From Escherichia phage GADS24: a stretch of 64,000 nt of DNA. Each line of letters starts with the position of its first letter. Position 1 is the stretch's first letter. The stretch lies in the sequence record OQ703618.1; one strand, written 5' to 3'. Position numbers and translations under genes: made by a program. Positions 12,703-40,637 of the stretch are shown here, one piece after another. Under the pieces are notes generated by a model that was not told the origin of the DNA, made no database searches, and saw nothing but the letters and a program-made list of their open reading frames with translations.

Positions 12703-13803
12703 TTACGCTGTGAAGATTTTATCCCACATCGCAACAACTGCATCTCGGTTATACTTCTTCCATACTGCTTCAGCGCGTTTAACTCGAGCTTCGTATGTGT
12801 CAGTGAATTCTAATACAGCTTTTGTGTAAAGCGCAACTACTTCTTTCTTAGGAGTAGAGGAATCAATTTCTACACGCACAGTATCTGGGTCGTATTCGAA
12901 TGTCGCATGAGGATAATCCTTAAAAACTAACTGGATTACAGGGACACCTTTAGAGATGGCTTCAATAGAACTATTCTCTACTGTACCTGTGTCAGGACAC
13001 GTATTAATAAGTGCTTTAGCTGTTTTAAGACGTTCCATGATTTCACTGTGTGGAGCATCAATAATAACAGGATATTTAGCTGGTGGTGCCCATTTACTAG
13101 GACAGTATCCTACACCATTTTCGCCTAGTGCTTTAATCGCTTCAAGAGCAACATCAGTACGACGCATTTTAGTGTCATAACGTTGTGCACTAATAATCAA
13201 ATCAGTTGCCGGGAGAACTTCTGGTTTTTCAGTCAAACAAATAACCGGATAATCTTCGGCTTCAAACAACGGATTTGCTCGCCAATAATCATAATCAATT
13301 TTGTCAGTCAGACCTGAAGTCATATAACAATATTTGCGTTCAAATTCACGGAAGGCTTTAGTAGGAGCATAACTCTTACCACCATTCTTATGAATTTGAA
13401 TAGTCTGGTCCCAAATTTGAACAATGCCACGAGATACCGGTTCAAATGGTGTTGCCATAAAATTCTTATGAACTTTAGAGAGACCTGCGTCTTTAATTGC
13501 CTGAACGGTTAGTTTAGTCGGTTCCATAGTAACAACAAAATCGTATTCATGTATGCCGGCTAGTTCGACAATCTTACGAGCCATAGTATAACTCATACCT
13601 AGACTGAATTTAGTCAGATGTCCAACAGGGTGGTGTGTAACTTTCCAGTCACCAAACGTGTCATTATCAAAGCCGATATAATCAATATCAGCACCGATGG
13701 ACACAAGATATTTCAACACATTTAAATGTACTGCTTCAAGACCACCTTGTACACGGTCAGGATTAAATGGGACTGCACGAGATGGGATAAACATAACTTT
13801 CAT
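12703..13803 (-). CDS. GT-B fold glycosyltransferase; candidate hmC-DNA sugar transferase (arabinosyltransferase-like)
   Basis: 366 aa; C-terminal GT4-like E-x7-E motif (VENSSIEAISKGVPVI); lies between rIIA.1 and gene 39 where T4 has gene 60; no alpha/beta-gt elsewhere in the window. Confidence 0.75.
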   Translation of the reverse strand: MKVMFIPSRAVPFNPDRVQGGLEAVHLNVLKYLVSIGADIDYIGFDNDTFGDWKVTHHPVGHLTKFSLGMSYTMARKIVELAGIHEYDFVVTMEPTKLTVQAIKDAGLSKVHKNFMATPFEPVSRGIVQIWDQTIQIHKNGGKSYAPTKAFREFERKYCYMTSGLTDKIDYDYWRANPLFEAEDYPVICLTEKPEVLPATDLIISAQRYDTKMRRTDVALEAIKALGENGVGYCPSKWAPPAKYPVIIDAPHSEIMERLKTAKALINTCPDTGTVENSSIEAISKGVPVIQLVFKDYPHATFEYDPDTVRVEIDSSTPKKEVVALYTKAVLEFTDTYEARVKRAEAVWKKYNRDAVVAMWDKIFTA

Positions 13804-25489: not shown

Positions 25490-26011
25490 TCAGTAACCAT
25501 TATCCTGGCGTTCAAAGTTGTGTTGGTTTTTCAAGTAGTAAAGTTTAAAGATTTCTTCAGCGGAAAGACCCAGACCTTGGAACATATTCAGAACAAAGTG
25601 GAGAATATCAATCATCTCAAATTTAATTTCAAGCTGGTCTTCAGGAGACAGTTCATCGATACGACGATTTCGATATTCAGCATGTTGTGCTTTCCATGGC
25701 TTCCATACAGAGCTAGCGGCTTTTTCACCATTGCTCATACCACCGAGTGAAGTCAGCAGTTCACGGAATTCATCATCAATATAATCTTTCTGATTACGCA
25801 GCCAATCAACAACATCACCGGCAGTGGCCAATTCATCAGGATGTTTGTTATGTTCAGGCTTGTCATTTGCCAGACGAACCTGTAAAGATTTCTGCATATC
25901 AAGCATTACCTGAAGTGGGTCTTTATCTTCGTGAATCAGAGCATTAAAATAAGCTTCTTCTGCTTTATCAACACCAGAAATAAGTTGTGAACATTCATTA
26001 AAGTGCGCCAT
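25490..26011 (-). CDS. 56: dCTPase/dUTPase gp56 (MazG-like dCTP pyrophosphatase)
   Basis: About 173 aa from ATG at 26011 (track start is TTG); position between soc and 61; SD AAAGGAAA. Confidence 0.8.
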   Translation of the reverse strand: MAHFNECSQLISGVDKAEEAYFNALIHEDKDPLQVMLDMQKSLQVRLANDKPEHNKHPDELATAGDVVDWLRNQKDYIDDEFRELLTSLGGMSNGEKAASSVWKPWKAQHAEYRNRRIDELSPEDQLEIKFEMIDILHFVLNMFQGLGLSAEEIFKLYYLKNQHNFERQDNGY

Positions 26012-34085: not shown

Positions 34086-34634
34086 TTAACGAGCCCATTT
34101 GATAATTTCTGTAATCAAATTATTACGTTCGCTTGCATTAAATCCTATAACTTTGTTAGCACCATCATGATTAAGTAATTGATATGTTTGGATTTTGTTA
34201 TGAATTGCAAACTCTTCAAAATGTGAAATGACTGTATTAAAACCGAATGAAGACAAAGTAATAAGGTCGTCTTCAAAACTTTCAGTCATTTCGTTACGTG
34301 TTAAAATAATTGTGAACACATCATGGTTTTGGCAAAGACGAACATAATCCTGTTCATAAACATCAAGAACCGAGTCCGCATCTTGTCGAATACGTCCATA
34401 AACCCAGTTACTAATATATCCACGGTCTAACAGATAAATCTTAGTAGGGTCTAAATAATTCAACATCGTTTCGAAACAGCCAACTTCATTTCGAGACTTA
34501 ACATCAAAACGTCCATCAACTGTTCGTTTAGGGAAATCAATTTTTACATATCTTTCACTAATTTCCATTATGTCATTAATGAAAGTTGTTTTACCAGCAT
34601 TATCCGGGCCATCTACTAAAATAATTTTAGCCAT
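34086..34634 (-). CDS. P-loop nucleotide/nucleoside kinase-like protein
   Basis: 182 aa; Walker A VDGPDNAGKTT and LLDRGYIS (DR motif) as in dNMP/thymidylate-type kinases; first gene of the modification cluster. Confidence 0.6.
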   Translation of the reverse strand: MAKIILVDGPDNAGKTTFINDIMEISERYVKIDFPKRTVDGRFDVKSRNEVGCFETMLNYLDPTKIYLLDRGYISNWVYGRIRQDADSVLDVYEQDYVRLCQNHDVFTIILTRNEMTESFEDDLITLSSFGFNTVISHFEEFAIHNKIQTYQLLNHDGANKVIGFNASERNNLITEIIKWAR

Positions 34635-34635
34635 T

Positions 34636-35535
34636 TTATTCCTCGATTACGACATCTTCGTATTTAGGTATATTATACGGTGAAGAAATTAAAGCATTAA
34701 AGTAGATGAACTCGCCAAGACCTGGATGGAATACTTCTTCAGGATTTTCGAAATATTGAATCTTCGGCCGTCCTTTAAGAATTTGATAGTACTCAGTTTT
34801 AGTTGGTTTAAAAATTCGAATCAGCGCTTCTTCAGGATACTTATTTCTATCGAAGCTATTATTTGGATCGGTTACATAAAGCGGTTGACCTAATTGAATT
34901 GCACATTCAACCACTTGTTCAAAACGATAGCACGGGTCACTAATTCGAAATGGATGAAAAATACCATCTAGATGAATAGGAGCCAAATCACCTACAAAAC
35001 GCTGCATGATGGAAGGACGTATAACTTTCTGGGTTACGATAATCTTATTACCATCTGCACCAGCGTTAACCAGCACTTCCTTTTGACGTTCATTCAACAC
35101 AGTAGTTTGAAGTGAACGATTAACCGACAACATGTCGGTTTTTAAGAATTCGTCAATATAAAAACGTGGTTTATTAGGGTCTGCAGTGATATTGAAATTG
35201 AATTCTACATCAAAAGCTCCGTCATATCCAGTGATATCTGTTATTAGAAAATCACAATCATAATAAGCAATTAATGAATCAACCACAAATTCATTTTCAG
35301 ACCAGAAATATTTACGAGTGTTATACGCGTTATCTTTATACCATAACGGAACAAACTTAAATTCTGGGAAAAGACGTTCACATTCTTTAATATCAGATGC
35401 ATTACGTGGATATGTAATAACATCACCCGGATTAGCACGGTGCAAATGAAGTTGGAAGTTGCCATCCTTAAGGATAGCATACTCTCCAGTTTCATAAGAC
35501 CGCATACTCAAGATAGGTACGCGGAAAATAGCCAT
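34636..35535 (-). CDS. Hypothetical protein (299 aa) in the modification cluster; possible transferase
   Basis: Immediately downstream of gene 42 with ATGA overlap; Asp-rich YYDCDF segment; no family recognised. Confidence 0.55.
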   Translation of the reverse strand: MAIFRVPILSMRSYETGEYAILKDGNFQLHLHRANPGDVITYPRNASDIKECERLFPEFKFVPLWYKDNAYNTRKYFWSENEFVVDSLIAYYDCDFLITDITGYDGAFDVEFNFNITADPNKPRFYIDEFLKTDMLSVNRSLQTTVLNERQKEVLVNAGADGNKIIVTQKVIRPSIMQRFVGDLAPIHLDGIFHPFRISDPCYRFEQVVECAIQLGQPLYVTDPNNSFDRNKYPEEALIRIFKPTKTEYYQILKGRPKIQYFENPEEVFHPGLGEFIYFNALISSPYNIPKYEDVVIEE

Positions 35536-36251
35536 TAGTCAAGGAATCCTTTAACATAATCAAAATCACGTTCAAACACATGGGCACTTACCATGGTATG
35601 AGTATAATCACCAACTTCTACACCACATTCGTTAGCGATATAATGAAGTAATTTTCCTTGGAGATAAAAATCCAACTGCATAACAACAGCACAGTTCTGA
35701 GAACGCATATGGCAGTGGGTATAAAGCTTACCATCACGAATATAATAAGTCACTGAGTCAGTACATGGATATTCAAGCGTTTCGTCCGAATCAAGCAAAG
35801 CCTGATCAGAACTTTCTAGAATTTGGAACACAACTCTTCGAGAGTTAGGTTTCTCTTTAAGTTCTTTGAGAAGAGCTGGTAACTGGGCCGCAATTCGTGG
35901 ACCATAGAAAGTGTTGAAGTTTGCAGGCAAAGCATCTGATTTCGGTTTAGAAATAAATTTAGCAACGTTAGGATATGCCTTAAATGCTTCTTCTGCATCA
36001 GTTCCGCCAGAAATCATAAATTTCCAGAAATCTTCGGCATATTCATAAGAGATGCGGTTAATACGTGGGTCGGTCATTTTGAATGATGATGGAGTGTCAA
36101 CAACTACTGTCATAGACCCAATTTCATTACAACGTCCAATACGAGAATCAGTTACGAATTCCGGGTTTTCTAAAATCTCACGATTGACTGCTTTAAATGC
36201 GGATTGAAAATCTGCGGCTTTAATATATTTCATTGTGTTATGTTTTCCCAT
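35535..36251 (-). CDS. 42: dCMP hydroxymethylase (thymidylate synthase family), gene 42
   Basis: 238 aa; TS-family core with nucleophile Cys in YPCTDS, RS dyad 20-21 residues later and Asp at the position of TS Asn177 (cytosine specificity). Confidence 0.75.
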   Translation of the reverse strand: MGKHNTMKYIKAADFQSAFKAVNREILENPEFVTDSRIGRCNEIGSMTVVVDTPSSFKMTDPRINRISYEYAEDFWKFMISGGTDAEEAFKAYPNVAKFISKPKSDALPANFNTFYGPRIAAQLPALLKELKEKPNSRRVVFQILESSDQALLDSDETLEYPCTDSVTYYIRDGKLYTHCHMRSQNCAVVMQLDFYLQGKLLHYIANECGVEVGDYTHTMVSAHVFERDFDYVKGFLD

Positions 36252-36292: not shown

Positions 36293-36532
36293 TTATTTGA
36301 ATTTCTTAGCGATGTTGATATAACGTAGAGCTTCGGCATCGATACTTCTAAGGACACTATGAAGGAATGCGTCGGCATAGTATTCTAGTTGAACAGGTTC
36401 TTTAATCGCTTTAGCCGCTTTAGTTTCAAACAGGCCCATAAGGGCCTTTTTAAGAATTTGTTCGTTGCTGGTAATTTTAATAGTCAAAATCTCTTCATTA
36501 AGTTGGTGGTTAAAAGTTTTTCTAGAAATCAT
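36293..36532 (-). CDS. Hypothetical protein (79 aa)
   Basis: Small ORF between the U32-like gene and gene 42. Confidence 0.45.
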   Translation of the reverse strand: MISRKTFNHQLNEEILTIKITSNEQILKKALMGLFETKAAKAIKEPVQLEYYADAFLHSVLRSIDAEALRYINIAKKFK

Positions 36533-37689
36533 TCCGGGTACCTCAAAGCGTCGTCAGAGTTAGTTATATCAATAATAGATATAGAATTTTCTGATAACCC
36601 ATTTTTAGATAACTGACGTTTATAATATCTTTCACAATATGTACACGTCGTCCCGCAGATTTCATTAGCACAATCGAAATCTGGATGTCTGAACCACCTT
36701 TTTTCTAAAAAGCCGTCTAACAAAGAGGTTTCAATATTTACCGTATGTGAAAACTCGGTCTCATTTTCAAGAGTGAAAATGGTCTCTAAAGGCTTCCACA
36801 GTTCTAACAAATTACCTTCAAACTTTTCAGAAGCGTATGCTTCAAGAACTTTCAAAATGTAGTCTGTGCTACCTGTACGTCCTGAAACTTTGAATTGAGT
36901 GATACCAATATCATTATAAAGTTTCAAATCTTGTGGACGAACAAAACGAGTTCTCAACCAGTTAAATGGGTCTGTATCACGAGCTTTAATACAGTGCTGC
37001 ATAGGATATCCATTTAAGGATTTAGCATCATCAGCTGTAACATCAGTACTATGGAAAATATAGCAAGAGTCACGATAGCTACAATGTGTTGTATACCCTT
37101 TACCAGCATTAGAACAGAACTCATTTACAAGAACTTCAAATATTATATTGTTCTTATTGCAAAACTCTGCTGCACGCTTCAGGAAAGAAACTGAACGGTT
37201 CTTATGAATTCCACAGCAGACCTTTTTGATATTATACTGGTCATGTAAGTATTTGATTTGAGTTACAGCATCGACATGTAAAATTGTTGAAACTTCAATC
37301 TCAATGTCTTTATTGACTTCACGAACAATTTCCATAACAACAGGGTTAGCGATAGTAATACGCCATACGCCTATTGACCAAAGATACTGAACATAATCCT
37401 GAATAGCTTTCTTCTTCCACTCAACTAGTTCTCTTTTTGAACCGGGATTTATCGTGTTGAGTGTATAGTTAAAGCAAATACCTAATTCGTTACAACGTTT
37501 AACGTAATCTTCTAACATCTTTTTGTCAACGTCAGGAAGCCTAAAATCAGGTCTGGCTGCTACAAAAGCCATTTCTCTTGTAGAGCCGTATACTTCGTTT
37601 ATCAAGCTATTAGGATAAGTTTTATTGAGCTCTACGATTTTATCAAGAAGAGCTAAATCAAAATTCGTTCCGATTTTAAAAGTATTCAT
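36529..37689 (-). CDS. Cys-rich TIM-barrel-like enzyme, peptidase-U32-like (putative Fe-S protein), about 386 aa
   Basis: N-terminal pattern resembling U32 proteins (..EVYGS..ARPDF..ICFNYTLNT), central EVLVNEFCSNAGKGYTTHCSY, C-terminal CGTTCTYC (CxxxCxxC); trimmed to first ATG. Confidence 0.55.
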   Translation of the reverse strand: MNTFKIGTNFDLALLDKIVELNKTYPNSLINEVYGSTREMAFVAARPDFRLPDVDKKMLEDYVKRCNELGICFNYTLNTINPGSKRELVEWKKKAIQDYVQYLWSIGVWRITIANPVVMEIVREVNKDIEIEVSTILHVDAVTQIKYLHDQYNIKKVCCGIHKNRSVSFLKRAAEFCNKNNIIFEVLVNEFCSNAGKGYTTHCSYRDSCYIFHSTDVTADDAKSLNGYPMQHCIKARDTDPFNWLRTRFVRPQDLKLYNDIGITQFKVSGRTGSTDYILKVLEAYASEKFEGNLLELWKPLETIFTLENETEFSHTVNIETSLLDGFLEKRWFRHPDFDCANEICGTTCTYCERYYKRQLSKNGLSENSISIIDITNSDDALRYPE

Positions 37690-37748
37690 TTTTTTTTTGC
37701 ATCTCACGTTAATTGACGCGATGGTTTTTGCAGGTCTTACTTAAATTA

Positions 37749-38150
37749 TTATAGATTCGGTTTATATGATTTAAATGTTTCGAATTCGCCTTTATTCATA
37801 AGAGCTTTGAATTCGTCGGGACGCATAGCTTTGTCGTCGATAATCCAATCATATACTGGTTTATGTGTTAGCAAATTATGGTACTTCAAGCCAATGTTTG
37901 CCAAGTTCTGAATAAGACTTGGGAGAATGTCAATTGCTATACGACCAGGACCTACTGACTTCATACCGCGAGCAGTGTAAAGCGTTATGGTATGCCCTGC
38001 ATCATACAGGGCATTAATGGCAGACACCATTTCGACGTCTGGTTTGAAGTTCACGTAATCACGATTGTTATTCCACTCTGTTATACAATCATCGACATCA
38101 AAACAAAGATTAAGCATGTTTTCTACACGGTGCATTAGATTCGTTCCCAT
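37749..38150 (-). CDS. HAD-superfamily phosphatase (KdsC-like sugar-phosphate phosphatase)
   Basis: 133 aa; motif I FDVDDCIT (DxDx[T/V]) near the N-terminus; overlaps the upstream gene. Confidence 0.65.
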   Translation of the reverse strand: MGTNLMHRVENMLNLCFDVDDCITEWNNNRDYVNFKPDVEMVSAINALYDAGHTITLYTARGMKSVGPGRIAIDILPSLIQNLANIGLKYHNLLTHKPVYDWIIDDKAMRPDEFKALMNKGEFETFKSYKPNL

Positions 38151-39820
38151 TGATGAGTGATATCGCCACCGATTGGACGATAGGAAACACCAGTTTCTTT
38201 ATCAGTTAGTACCCATTTACCAGGATTTTTTGTAATCAGAGTAGCCGTTACAGGTTCTGCCATGTCATAACTAATAGAGCCGTCCTGAAGTACACGGCCC
38301 ATGTTACGTAATTGCTTAGTCAGAAGTTCCATACCTTTATAATATGCGGCTACCGCTTTAAGTGGATTATTCTTGAAATAACCACCTAATGCAATCCAGA
38401 TAATTGCTACAGCCAAATGATGATACTCGTTAAATGAACTCATCTTTCCATATTTGTAAACTAATGGATTGATGTTAATAGTCACATTACAAGTTGTTTC
38501 ATCAATAGTAAACTGTCCCCAGGTCGGATTAGCGTTGAATTCATCATAACCTGAAACAGCATAAAGCACTTTAGCTTCATCGTACAATTTTGGCCCGTAA
38601 ATCTTGGTTTCGCCAAAATATCCACGAGGGTCGATAAACTTGACTTCGCCGTTATCAGTAATCATAGTATTACTGAAGTTCGGGTCACCGTGAATAACAG
38701 AGTACTGTCCCTGAGAACGGTTATGATAACGAATAAGGTGTTCTAAAGCTTGTTTCAGCATTGGCTTCAGACGCCCAATCTTAGTGTAGTTCACATGTGT
38801 GATTTTACCAAATGAATCAATCAATGGTTGAATACTTTCACAACGATCAATAACTTTCGTATAGAATTCTTTAGTGAAATCACGACGAACAGTTTCAGGA
38901 CTTACAAAATAAGTGTCTGTGCTGAATTTCAGTGCATCTAAAATTGCATCAACAATTTGTGGACGAGCAAGACTCGATTTAGATTTAATATATTCAAATG
39001 CCGGCTTACCTTTAATGCGTTCCATTTCAAAGTTATTTTCATTAACAGAAACTAACTGAGGAACTGAATCTGATTTCACTTTAAGATACCATGAAATCTC
39101 ATCTTTCTGAAGAGCTCGTCCCTGTTCGGTTAATGCGAATTTAGTTACAGTTTCTTCACCAATTTCAACTGCATTAAAACTACGATTAAGTTCACGAACT
39201 TCATGAGCTTTTTCAAGTTTAGGCATATCACCTAAATCAATTAGATTCATAAGCTCTGATTTATTGAATGCGCCGCTGTAAAGGAATTCTACGAAATCAC
39301 GTCCTTTGCAGTATTCATGAATTTCCTCATCAGTAGAACCCATATAGAATTCCCAGTCTTTGAATTGATAAATTCCTACAACATTACCACCTGTTGAACC
39401 TACGTTAGTGATATTTTCACCGTCGAAATTATATCGACATTCGTCACCCTTAACATAGATTGCGTTAACATTCCAAGACCATGAACCAAAATCAGGAATA
39501 ATATCACACCAGTTAACAATTACATTATGGCCGTCTAAATCTTTGTGTAATTTAGCAAGAGCATAAGCGGAACCATATGCTTCATCAACTGTACGAATAG
39601 TCACATTGAACCCTTCTTGCTCACAATAAGCTCGAACAGTTTCAGCAAATTTTGAATGAACTACTACAATAATTTCATCTGCGCCAAGGTCAGAATAAAT
39701 TGTATACAAATTGCTCAGAATAGTGTCTTGTTTATAGTTAACAAGCACCTTAGGAATATGATGCGTTATTGGATACAAACGAGTTGCCAGTCCAGCACCA
39801 AGAATAACAGCTTTTTTCAT
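38135..39820 (-). CDS. Bifunctional sugar-1-phosphate nucleotidyltransferase (N-terminal) / sugar kinase (C-terminal)
   Basis: 561 aa; N-terminal ILGAGLATRLYPIT..PKVLV (RmlA/GlmU-type G-x-G-x-R); C-terminal HGDPNFSNTMI..FIDPRGYFG resembling APH/choline-kinase catalytic loop. Confidence 0.7.
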   Translation of the reverse strand: MKKAVILGAGLATRLYPITHHIPKVLVNYKQDTILSNLYTIYSDLGADEIIVVVHSKFAETVRAYCEQEGFNVTIRTVDEAYGSAYALAKLHKDLDGHNVIVNWCDIIPDFGSWSWNVNAIYVKGDECRYNFDGENITNVGSTGGNVVGIYQFKDWEFYMGSTDEEIHEYCKGRDFVEFLYSGAFNKSELMNLIDLGDMPKLEKAHEVRELNRSFNAVEIGEETVTKFALTEQGRALQKDEISWYLKVKSDSVPQLVSVNENNFEMERIKGKPAFEYIKSKSSLARPQIVDAILDALKFSTDTYFVSPETVRRDFTKEFYTKVIDRCESIQPLIDSFGKITHVNYTKIGRLKPMLKQALEHLIRYHNRSQGQYSVIHGDPNFSNTMITDNGEVKFIDPRGYFGETKIYGPKLYDEAKVLYAVSGYDEFNANPTWGQFTIDETTCNVTININPLVYKYGKMSSFNEYHHLAVAIIWIALGGYFKNNPLKAVAAYYKGMELLTKQLRNMGRVLQDGSISYDMAEPVTATLITKNPGKWVLTDKETGVSYRPIGGDITHQWERI

Positions 39821-39861: not shown

Positions 39862-40005
39862 CTAGTTAAAGCATTCATACTTTGCTTGTAGTCCAATCAT
39901 AATCCATCCAATTACAAGTGTTGGAATCATTACTGGAGCCGTTAAGCTCCAGTAGATAGTCATGACAAGCATCAATAGTAAAAGTCCTATTGTTATTGCT
40001 TTCAT
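39862..40005 (-). CDS. Small hydrophobic peptide (47 aa)
   Basis: ATG overlaps the stop of the isomerase gene (ATGA); translation MKAITIGLLLLMLVMTIYWSLTAPVMIPTLVIGWIMIGL; below ORF-track cutoff. Confidence 0.3.
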   Translation of the reverse strand: MKAITIGLLLLMLVMTIYWSLTAPVMIPTLVIGWIMIGLQAKYECFN

Positions 40006-40637
40006 TGTTCGCCTCGTAACATGGCACCTAGTGCACCACCAGGGTGGAACTTAAGGAAGTCATTAGAGGTAAATCCACGTTCAGACGAAAGGTTGATAGC
40101 GAACGTATCGATAAGCGCTAACAACAATGTAGTAGACATTGTCGGAGCTAAAGAGTTCTCGTCAACTTCTACCGCGATGCCTGTACAGAAAGAGTAATCA
40201 AAAAGGGCTTCATTTTCTTGCGGAATGTCAGGGTTACAATGTAACAGAATCTGTTTAACCTGAGGACGAATCATACGAAGATGTTTAGCAACACCTATCA
40301 TTTCTTCGGTTTTACCAGAACGACTAATATGAATCAACACATCATTAGGCGCAATGAATCCTGCATCACCGTGAGAATAATGCCCAGTGTTCAAGTACAT
40401 ACTCGGGATACCGAGTGAAGCAAATGTCTCAGAAGCTTTAGTTGCAATATTAGCATTCTTACCAACACCTGTAATAATTACTCGGCTTTCATAATTACTA
40501 AGTCCTGGGCGTCGAAGAGTTTCTAGAATAGCATTATAACGAGCAGGGTTTTGACTAATTACTTTGGCCATAGTAGCCAAAGAAGAAGCTTGTTTTACGA
40601 TTGCGTCAATAGCGATAGTAATAGGAGTAGTTTTCAT
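40002..40637 (-). CDS. SIS-domain sugar-phosphate isomerase (KdsD/GutQ-like arabinose-5-phosphate isomerase)
   Basis: 211 aa; SIS motifs ITGVGKNANIA and SRSGKTEE, C-terminal FHPGGALG as in API enzymes. Confidence 0.75.
   Translation of the reverse strand: MKTTPITIAIDAIVKQASSLATMAKVISQNPARYNAILETLRRPGLSNYESRVIITGVGKNANIATKASETFASLGIPSMYLNTGHYSHGDAGFIAPNDVLIHISRSGKTEEMIGVAKHLRMIRPQVKQILLHCNPDIPQENEALFDYSFCTGIAVEVDENSLAPTMSTTLLLALIDTFAINLSSERGFTSNDFLKFHPGGALGAMLRGEQ

Follow-up and report, generated by a model that had tools for sequence, protein, structure and literature searches.

A thymidylate synthase-fold protein of Escherichia phage GADS24 is probably a 5-hydroxy-dCMP synthase and a near-identical copy of RB69 gp48

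Which modified cytosine carries the sugar in the DNA of Escherichia phage GADS24, and by which chemistry is it made? The question is raised by one gene (35535..36251) in a window of 64,000 nucleotides of this phage (OQ703618.1; all coordinates are positions in this window). The initial annotation described the product as a cytosine-specific hydroxymethylase of the thymidylate synthase (TS) family, acting on deoxycytidine monophosphate (dCMP), and proposed 5-hydroxymethylcytosine (hmC) rather than 5-hydroxymethyluracil (hmU) as the base that is glycosylated. The cytosine part of this proposal has held, whereas the hydroxymethyl part has not. With a probability of roughly 93%, as judged from sequence comparison, the gene encodes a TS-fold 5-hydroxy-dCMP synthase, which would use flavin and O2 in place of methylene-tetrahydrofolate. 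The protein, its structure and its pathway are already known (published 2025-2026), and the GADS24 gene is a near-identical copy.

An open reading frame (ORF) of 238 amino acids, running from ATG to stop on the minus strand, was found exactly at 35535..36251. Its product matched the Pfam family Thymidylat_synt (PF00303) with E=2.4e-15 and 56.9 bits, against a cut-off of 24.3. As had been read from the sequence initially, a cysteine (Cys163, in YPCTDS) is followed 20 and 21 residues later by an Arg-Ser dyad (Arg183/Ser184, in MRSQN); an aspartate (Asp194, in QLDFY) is located 31 residues after the cysteine. The same spacing is present in E. coli ThyA (C146-R166/S167-N177) and T4 gp42 (C148-R168/S169-D179), the sequences of which were taken from annotated records and aligned with the ORF. 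Cys163 shares an alignment column with ThyA Cys146 and T4 C148, and Arg183/Ser184 with ThyA R166/S167 and T4 R168/S169. Asp194 falls in the column of ThyA Asn177 and T4 gp42 Asp179, and the claim of an aspartate at the specificity position was thereby confirmed.

Conservation was assessed in the 120 best database homologs, which are 54-98% identical to the 238-amino-acid protein. Cys163, Arg138/139 (ThyA R126/127), Arg183, Ser184, Asp194 and His224 were invariant (120/120), which excludes a chance motif as the source of the Cys/RS/Asp pattern. Glu160, Asn186 and Val190, corresponding to L143E, D169N and G173V in ThyA numbering, were also kept in all 120. The PF00303 score lies above the gathering score, and a TS fold was obtained in an AlphaFold2 (AF2) model, which was built with 41 homologs (predicted local distance difference test, pLDDT, 85.9) and matched TS and MilA structures with a probability of 1.00. 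Together with the nucleophilic Cys and the equivalents of the phosphate-binding Arg126/127 and Arg166-Ser167, this places the protein in the thymidylate synthase superfamily, as a member with a nucleophilic cysteine.

The closest characterized relatives are RB69 gp48 and HY126 AfhB. RB69 gp48 is identical at 237 of 238 positions (99.6%), the sole difference being S17T, and HY126 AfhB at 236 of 238 (99.2%), with differences E30Q and E88K; none of the three is at a conserved or active-site position. A search of PDB sequences returned 9IQC, 9IR2 and 9IQU, each with the two HY126 substitutions, and these entries were tied to HY126 by the shared E30Q/E88K pattern and by their titles in Foldseek. 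The AF2 model superimposed on 9IQC ('Monooxygenase dependent on riboflavin with dCMP and FAD') with a template modeling (TM) score of 0.94 and on 9IQU ('phage HY126 dCMP hydroxylase-AfhB with substrate dCMP') with a TM score of 0.87. The next structural matches were to the CMP hydroxymethylase MilA (TM 0.79), followed by thymidylate synthases. D169N, N177D and the catalytic Cys (an RSQN...D motif) were all found in the GADS24 protein, as in the AfhB/gp48 clade, along with close homology to its characterized members. The orthologs that accompany this clade (Aat1, AfhE, AfhF, arabinose-5-phosphate isomerase, Aat2 and gp56) are all encoded in the window.

The biochemistry of these relatives has been described. 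It has been shown that expression of RB69 gp48 together with a phage deoxynucleoside monophosphate (dNMP) kinase in E. coli results in 5-hydroxy-deoxycytidine (5hodC) in DNA (Lee et al., Nucleic Acids Res 2026, PMC13326640). In the same assay T4 gp42 gave 5-hydroxymethyl-deoxycytidine (5hmdC), which is distinct from 5hodC in retention time and mass. Growth under 18O2 shifted the product by +2 Da, i.e., 18O was incorporated from 18O2, and the purified enzyme was yellow and released an FMN-like flavin (PMC13326640). For proteins one or two residues different from that of GADS24, it is thus published that dCMP is the substrate, 5-hydroxy-dCMP the product, O2 the source of the oxygen, and that flavin is bound (PMC13326640). 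According to the account given in PMC13326640, a structure of the HY126 enzyme with flavin and its in vitro reconstitution were reported by He et al. (Nat Chem Biol 2026). DNA of RB69 and of Acinetobacter phage DLP3 carries mono- and poly-arabinosylated cytosine with the sugar ether-linked to an oxygen directly on C5 (PMC13326640). It has also been stated that RB69 was 'erroneously identified' as containing arabinosyl-hmC, and 5-ara-dC was found in another Mosigvirus (PMC13390438). Since proteins that differ by one or two residues make 5-hydroxy-dCMP, the glycosylated base in GADS24 is most probably 5-hydroxycytosine (5hoC), its arabinose being joined to C5 through an ether bond. The initial proposal was therefore right in pointing to a cytosine derivative and away from hmU, and wrong in naming hmC.

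Why was the sequence motif unable to separate the two activities? Both Asp194 (N177D) and Glu160 (L143E) are common to T4 gp42 and the GADS24 protein. The aspartate at N177D indicates a cytosine substrate (dCMP), not a product. Other positions appear to distinguish the two enzymes. D169N (ThyA numbering) has been proposed as diagnostic, and nine further D169N homologs gave 5hodC (PMC13326640). We aligned the GADS24 protein with phage TS homologs across the whole similarity range. In addition to Asn186 (in RSQN; D169N), Val190 (G173V) and Glu160, an alanine was found at the column of ThyA Trp80. The three changes W80A, D169N and G173V are common to the GADS24 protein and its homologs from Acinetobacter (71% identity) and Rhizobium (33% identity) phages; the Rhizobium homolog also has the diagnostic residues N186, D194 and C163. 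Trp, Asp and Gly are retained in the folate enzymes ThyA and T4 gp42 and in homologs from the T4-like Yersinia phage MHG19, the Xanthomonas phage Xp15 and a Bacteroides phage, the records of which name a thymidylate synthase or a dCMP hydroxymethylase. MilA keeps the Asp169 and Gly173 equivalents. In ThyA, W80, D169 and G173 all lie at <=6 A from C5 of the bound nucleotide (PMC13326640). The co-variation of W80A, D169N and G173V, at positions which are all near the nucleotide C5, suggests that they mark the hydroxylase clade, and would fit a remodelled cofactor pocket. A caution for annotation follows: the Cys/RS/Asp signature, long taken as 'dCMP hydroxymethylase', identifies the substrate only; which product is formed depends on other pocket positions, on D169N and, according to the present comparison, probably on W80A and G173V as well.

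A reaction sequence can be proposed from TS chemistry and the conserved residues. Cys163 would add to C6 of dCMP as in TS, and Asp194 would read the N3/N4 face of the cytosine. The C5 nucleophile could then attack a flavin C4a-hydroperoxide bound where folate sits in TS, at a site reshaped by W80A, D169N and G173V, and elimination of the thiol would restore the ring and release 5-hydroxy-dCMP. Several points weigh against this assignment or its details. The identification as a 5-hydroxy-dCMP synthase rests on near-identity to characterized orthologs; the identity of the flavin is reported inconsistently, being FMN-like in PMC13326640 and riboflavin/FAD in the PDB titles; and the covalent Cys-C6 and flavin-hydroperoxide steps are inferred.

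Other activities of the enzyme have to be considered. The initial annotation and the original 2018 reading of RB69 amount to a T4 gp42-like, folate-dependent dCMP hydroxymethylase, whose hmdCMP product is then glycosylated. The TS fold, the Cys, the Asp at N177 (D194) and the acidic residue at L143 (E160) are as in T4 gp42. The gene occupies the T4 gene 42 slot, with a glycosyltransferase gene as neighbour and uvsX and gene 43 on either side, and many GenBank records carry this annotation. However, identity to T4 gp42 is only 25%, and Asp169, Gly173 and Trp80, which T4 gp42 retains, are replaced in the GADS24 protein and across the whole hydroxylase clade. The RB69 protein, one residue different, yields 5hodC, not 5hmdC (PMC13326640), and RB69 and NP virion DNA carry the C5-linked arabinose ether. 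As the hydroxymethylase is already refuted for the ortholog, we consider it very improbable for GADS24. Even less credence can be given to an ordinary thymidylate synthase converting dUMP to dTMP, although GenBank product names and matches to PF00303 and to NCBIfam thymidylate synthase models point that way: Asp replaces Asn177, Glu replaces the hydrophobic Leu143, Asn replaces Asp169, and all NCBIfam scores remain far below the equivalog cut-offs (e.g., 69 vs 174.55 and 50 vs 325). Moreover, the C-terminal segment of ThyA is absent (238 vs 264 amino acids; the alignment stops early).

A promiscuous enzyme, making both 5-hydroxy- and 5-hydroxymethyl-dCMP according to cofactor supply, for example by folate chemistry without O2, would accommodate the intact TS catalytic core (Cys, phosphate-binding Arg residues, His224) and the need of the phage to multiply in the gut, where O2 is lacking and a reaction that depends on it is impossible. 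Against this, no hmC species has been reported for RB69 or NP DNA, and the substitutions at three positions that line the one-time folate site are invariant, which makes dual activity highly unlikely. The flavin- and O2-dependent 5-hydroxy-dCMP synthase remains the preferred assignment.

The window belongs to a Mosigvirus (RB69-like); over 6 kb around the gene, DNA identity to RB69 and ~150 other Mosigvirus genomes is 97.7-98.5%. Identity to the RB69 counterparts is 97-99% throughout the arabinosylation cluster and for the dCTPase and the predicted second arabinosyltransferase. The following features were assigned:

12703..13803, minus strand: predicted second arabinosyltransferase (RB69 gp3 ortholog; PMC13326640 Table 1), between rIIA.1 and gene 39
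25490..26011, minus strand: gp56 dCTPase/dUTPase, which supplies dCMP and clears dCTP from the pool
34086..34634, minus strand: thymidylate-kinase-like P-loop nucleotide kinase (RB69 gp45 ortholog), 98.9% identical to RB69p045
34636..35535, minus strand: predicted DNA arabinosyltransferase 1 (RB69 gp46:47 ortholog), 299 amino acids, in the position that beta-gt has in T4
35535..36251, minus strand: probable 5-hydroxy-dCMP synthase (dCMP 5-hydroxylase; AfhB / RB69 gp48 ortholog), assigned by TS fold and near-identity to characterized orthologs
36293..36532, minus strand: small ORF of 79 amino acids (RB69 ORF049c ortholog), with a four-base overlap between its start and the end of the U32-family ORF
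36529..37707, minus strand: Peptidase_U32-family protein (RB69 gp50 ortholog; Pfam 7.7e-11) with nine invariant Cys
37749..38150, minus strand: HAD-type sugar phosphatase (RB69 gp51 / HY126 AfhF analog; TIGR01689 4.3e-13)
38135..39820, minus strand: bifunctional protein of 561 amino acids with N-terminal nucleotidyltransferase and C-terminal kinase (RB69 gp52:53 / HY126 AfhE analog)
40002..40637, minus strand: arabinose-5-phosphate isomerase (RB69 gp55 ortholog)

The gene order is uvsX, thymidylate-kinase-like gene, 299-amino-acid ORF, 238-amino-acid ORF, 79-amino-acid ORF, U32-family gene, HAD phosphatase, 561-amino-acid nucleotidyltransferase/kinase, an ORF of 47 amino acids, arabinose-5-phosphate isomerase and DNA polymerase. 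At the same place, T4 has uvsX, segA, beta-gt, gene 42, imm, imm.1 and gene 43. Judged by this matching order, the 238-amino-acid ORF stands in the place of gene 42 and the 299-amino-acid ORF in that of beta-gt. The statement that the enzyme does not lie next to a glucosyltransferase gene could accordingly not be upheld: the start of the predicted arabinosyltransferase ORF (34636..35535) overlaps the stop of the hydroxylase gene by one base (TAATG, 35533..35537). This ORF has no Pfam match and was for that reason overlooked; its published assignment as a glycosyltransferase is a prediction from structure comparison (PMC13326640 Table 1).

Further overlaps were observed on the minus strand. The end of the U32-family ORF and the start of the ORF049c ortholog share four bases (36529..36532), and the HAD phosphatase and AfhE-like genes overlap by 16 nt (38135..38150). 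The overlap of consecutive cluster genes suggests one translationally coupled operon. The pairs ORF046c/047c and ORF052c/053c, annotated as split in the RB69 reference, are single intact ORFs in GADS24 (299 and 561 amino acids), in agreement with the literature, where the RB69 splits are put down to sequencing errors. The thymidylate-kinase-like ORF (34086..34634) showed a weak match to dTMP kinase, below every Pfam and NCBIfam threshold. It is conserved beside the hydroxylase in Acinetobacter (46% identity) and Dhakavirus (38% identity) clusters. The kinase of the published assay is a gene-1-type dNMP kinase, encoded outside the window; the ORF at 34086..34634 is a second kinase-like gene.

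Searches of the window by tblastn with T4 gp42 and ThyA detected the ORF at 35535..36251 and no second TS-family gene, and a separate T4-type gene 42 was rejected as a candidate. No beta-gt homolog was found in the window by tblastn with T4 beta-gt. In GenBank and RefSeq, the gene at 35535..36251 is mostly recorded as 'thymidylate synthase', 'dCMP hydroxymethylase', 'deoxycytidylate 5-hydroxymethyltransferase' or 'hypothetical protein', and 5-hydroxy-dCMP synthase activity was named in none of the product names among the matches listed.

The steps downstream of the hydroxylase are partly shown and partly deduced. A gene-1-type dNMP kinase and the host nucleoside diphosphate (NDP) kinase would convert the product to the triphosphate 5hodCTP, gp56 would remove dCTP, and the polymerase would incorporate 5hoC. 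The two predicted arabinosyltransferases (34636..35535 and 12703..13803) would then add one or two arabinofuranoses from UDP-arabinofuranose (UDP-Araf), which may be supplied by the isomerase, the kinase/uridylyltransferase and the phosphatase encoded just upstream. AfhE-type enzymes make UDP-arabinofuranose, and AfhF-type phosphatases convert Araf-1,5-P2 to Araf-1-P (PMC13326640).

A reduced version of the cluster was observed in Dhakavirus vB_EcoM_IME281 (contig L014, 5853-10589). It consists of AfhE-like, HAD, kinase, hydroxylase (80% identity) and Aat1 (68% identity) genes, and has neither a U32 gene nor an arabinose-5-phosphate isomerase gene. As the isomerase gene is absent from this cluster, arabinose-5-phosphate is presumably supplied to IME281 by the host KdsD/GutQ.

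Could the cluster also provide the modified base where O2 is lacking? The U32-family ORF lies two genes upstream of the 238-amino-acid ORF. The U32 family includes RlhA (23S rRNA 5-hydroxycytidine synthase), TrhP (tRNA 5-hydroxyuridine) and UbiU/UbiV, which are O2-independent, Fe-S-dependent hydroxylases. In RefSeq, E. coli RlhA is named '23S rRNA 5-hydroxycytidine C2501 synthase' and TrhP a tRNA wobble base hydroxylation protein. It may be speculated, although this is less likely than not, that the cluster holds two routes to 5-hydroxycytosine, the U32-family protein being an O2-independent C5 pyrimidine hydroxylase during infection in the anoxic gut. Alternatively, the protein could function in sugar synthesis instead of hydroxylation. 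In the accessible literature, the phage protein is listed only as a 'sugar or heterocycle reductase'; the gene goes unmentioned in the 2018 RB69 paper and in the Thanatos paper, and no relevant paper was retrieved by a literature search on U32 together with arabinose, phage and cytosine.

Nine cysteines (C164, C198, C209, C215, C239 and C346-x4-C351-x3-C355-x2-C358) were invariant in 121 U32 homologs, and these include the C-terminal C-x4-C-x3-C-x2-C group. A hidden Markov model (HMM) of the phage U32 protein family gave weak local matches only, best to TrhP and RlhA. In the annotation of the ORF itself, a weak UbiU hit accompanied the Pfam match. In the weak HMM alignment, C215 is placed on the second Cys of the RlhA C-x6-C motif, which is suggestive. 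No match was obtained by phmmer against PDB sequences, and a MAFFT alignment with E. coli UbiU, UbiV, RlhA and TrhP was ragged, with Cys columns that could not be placed.

The distribution of the U32 protein was also considered. It was present in 221 records of the phage collection, for which every host genus listed is within Enterobacterales or is Shewanella (facultative anaerobes). None of the 64 Acinetobacter or 22 Rhizobium phage records of the collection that match the TS-fold enzyme was among the U32 matches; for each genus, one TS-fold homolog was aligned and has the hydroxylase signature. Homologs with ~55% identity were found in three metagenomic phage contigs with a DnaE-type polymerase: L010 (8001-9086), L012 (8001-9083) and L011 (8001-9086). 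In L010 and L012 the homolog lies beside dCMP deaminase, thymidylate-kinase-like and uracil-DNA glycosylase (UDG)-family genes. In L011 it is clustered with genes for an Aat1-like glycosyltransferase, SIS, AfhE-like, DAHP_synth_1 (KdsA-like) and epimerase proteins. No TS-family gene was detected within 8 kb of the homolog in any of the three. These contig contexts and the host range are compatible with an O2-independent 5-hydroxypyrimidine route in anoxic infection. The presence of the pathway in Dhakavirus coliphages that have no U32 gene argues against such a function. The idea that the U32 protein is obligatory for enterobacterial phages was rejected, as IME281 has the cluster without it.

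The U32-family ORF as listed starts with GTG and encodes 392 amino acids, whereas 389 and 386 amino acids are annotated in RB69 and HY126, respectively. Because these annotations are shorter and the homolog alignments begin at residues 4-7 of the 392-amino-acid form, translation probably begins at the ATG at 37689 (Met7, MNTFKIG). Should the proposed U32 route exist, it would account for the ability of gut phages to produce an O2-derived base under anoxia, and the substrates of this hydroxylase family, RNA and quinones, would come to include DNA precursors.

Among known systems, RB69 gp48 and HY126 AfhB are practically the same protein as that of GADS24, and share its gene neighbourhood and its D169N/N177D/L143E signature. 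With T4 gp42 the enzyme has in common the TS fold, the nucleophilic Cys, the Asp at N177, the acidic residue at L143, the dCMP substrate and the location beside a DNA glycosyltransferase gene; it differs (25% identity) in that T4 has Trp, Asp171 and Gly175 where the hydroxylase clade has Ala, Asn and Val. T4 gp42 uses methylene-tetrahydrofolate and water to introduce CH2OH, whereas RB69 gp48-type enzymes use flavin and O2 to introduce OH (PMC13326640). The best non-self structural match is the CMP 5-hydroxymethylase MilA (5JNH, 5B6D; TM 0.79, ~24% identity), which is likewise cytosine-specific with an Asp at N177; unlike the phage protein, MilA acts on a ribonucleotide, is folate-dependent, keeps Asp169 and Gly173 and is larger (~320 amino acids). 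E. coli ThyA is 30% identical over the C-terminal half only. The fold, Cys146, Arg126/127, Arg166, Ser167 and His207 are conserved between the two, whereas N177D, L143E, D169N, G173V, W80A and H147T, together with the loss of the C-terminal tail, set the phage protein apart from ThyA.

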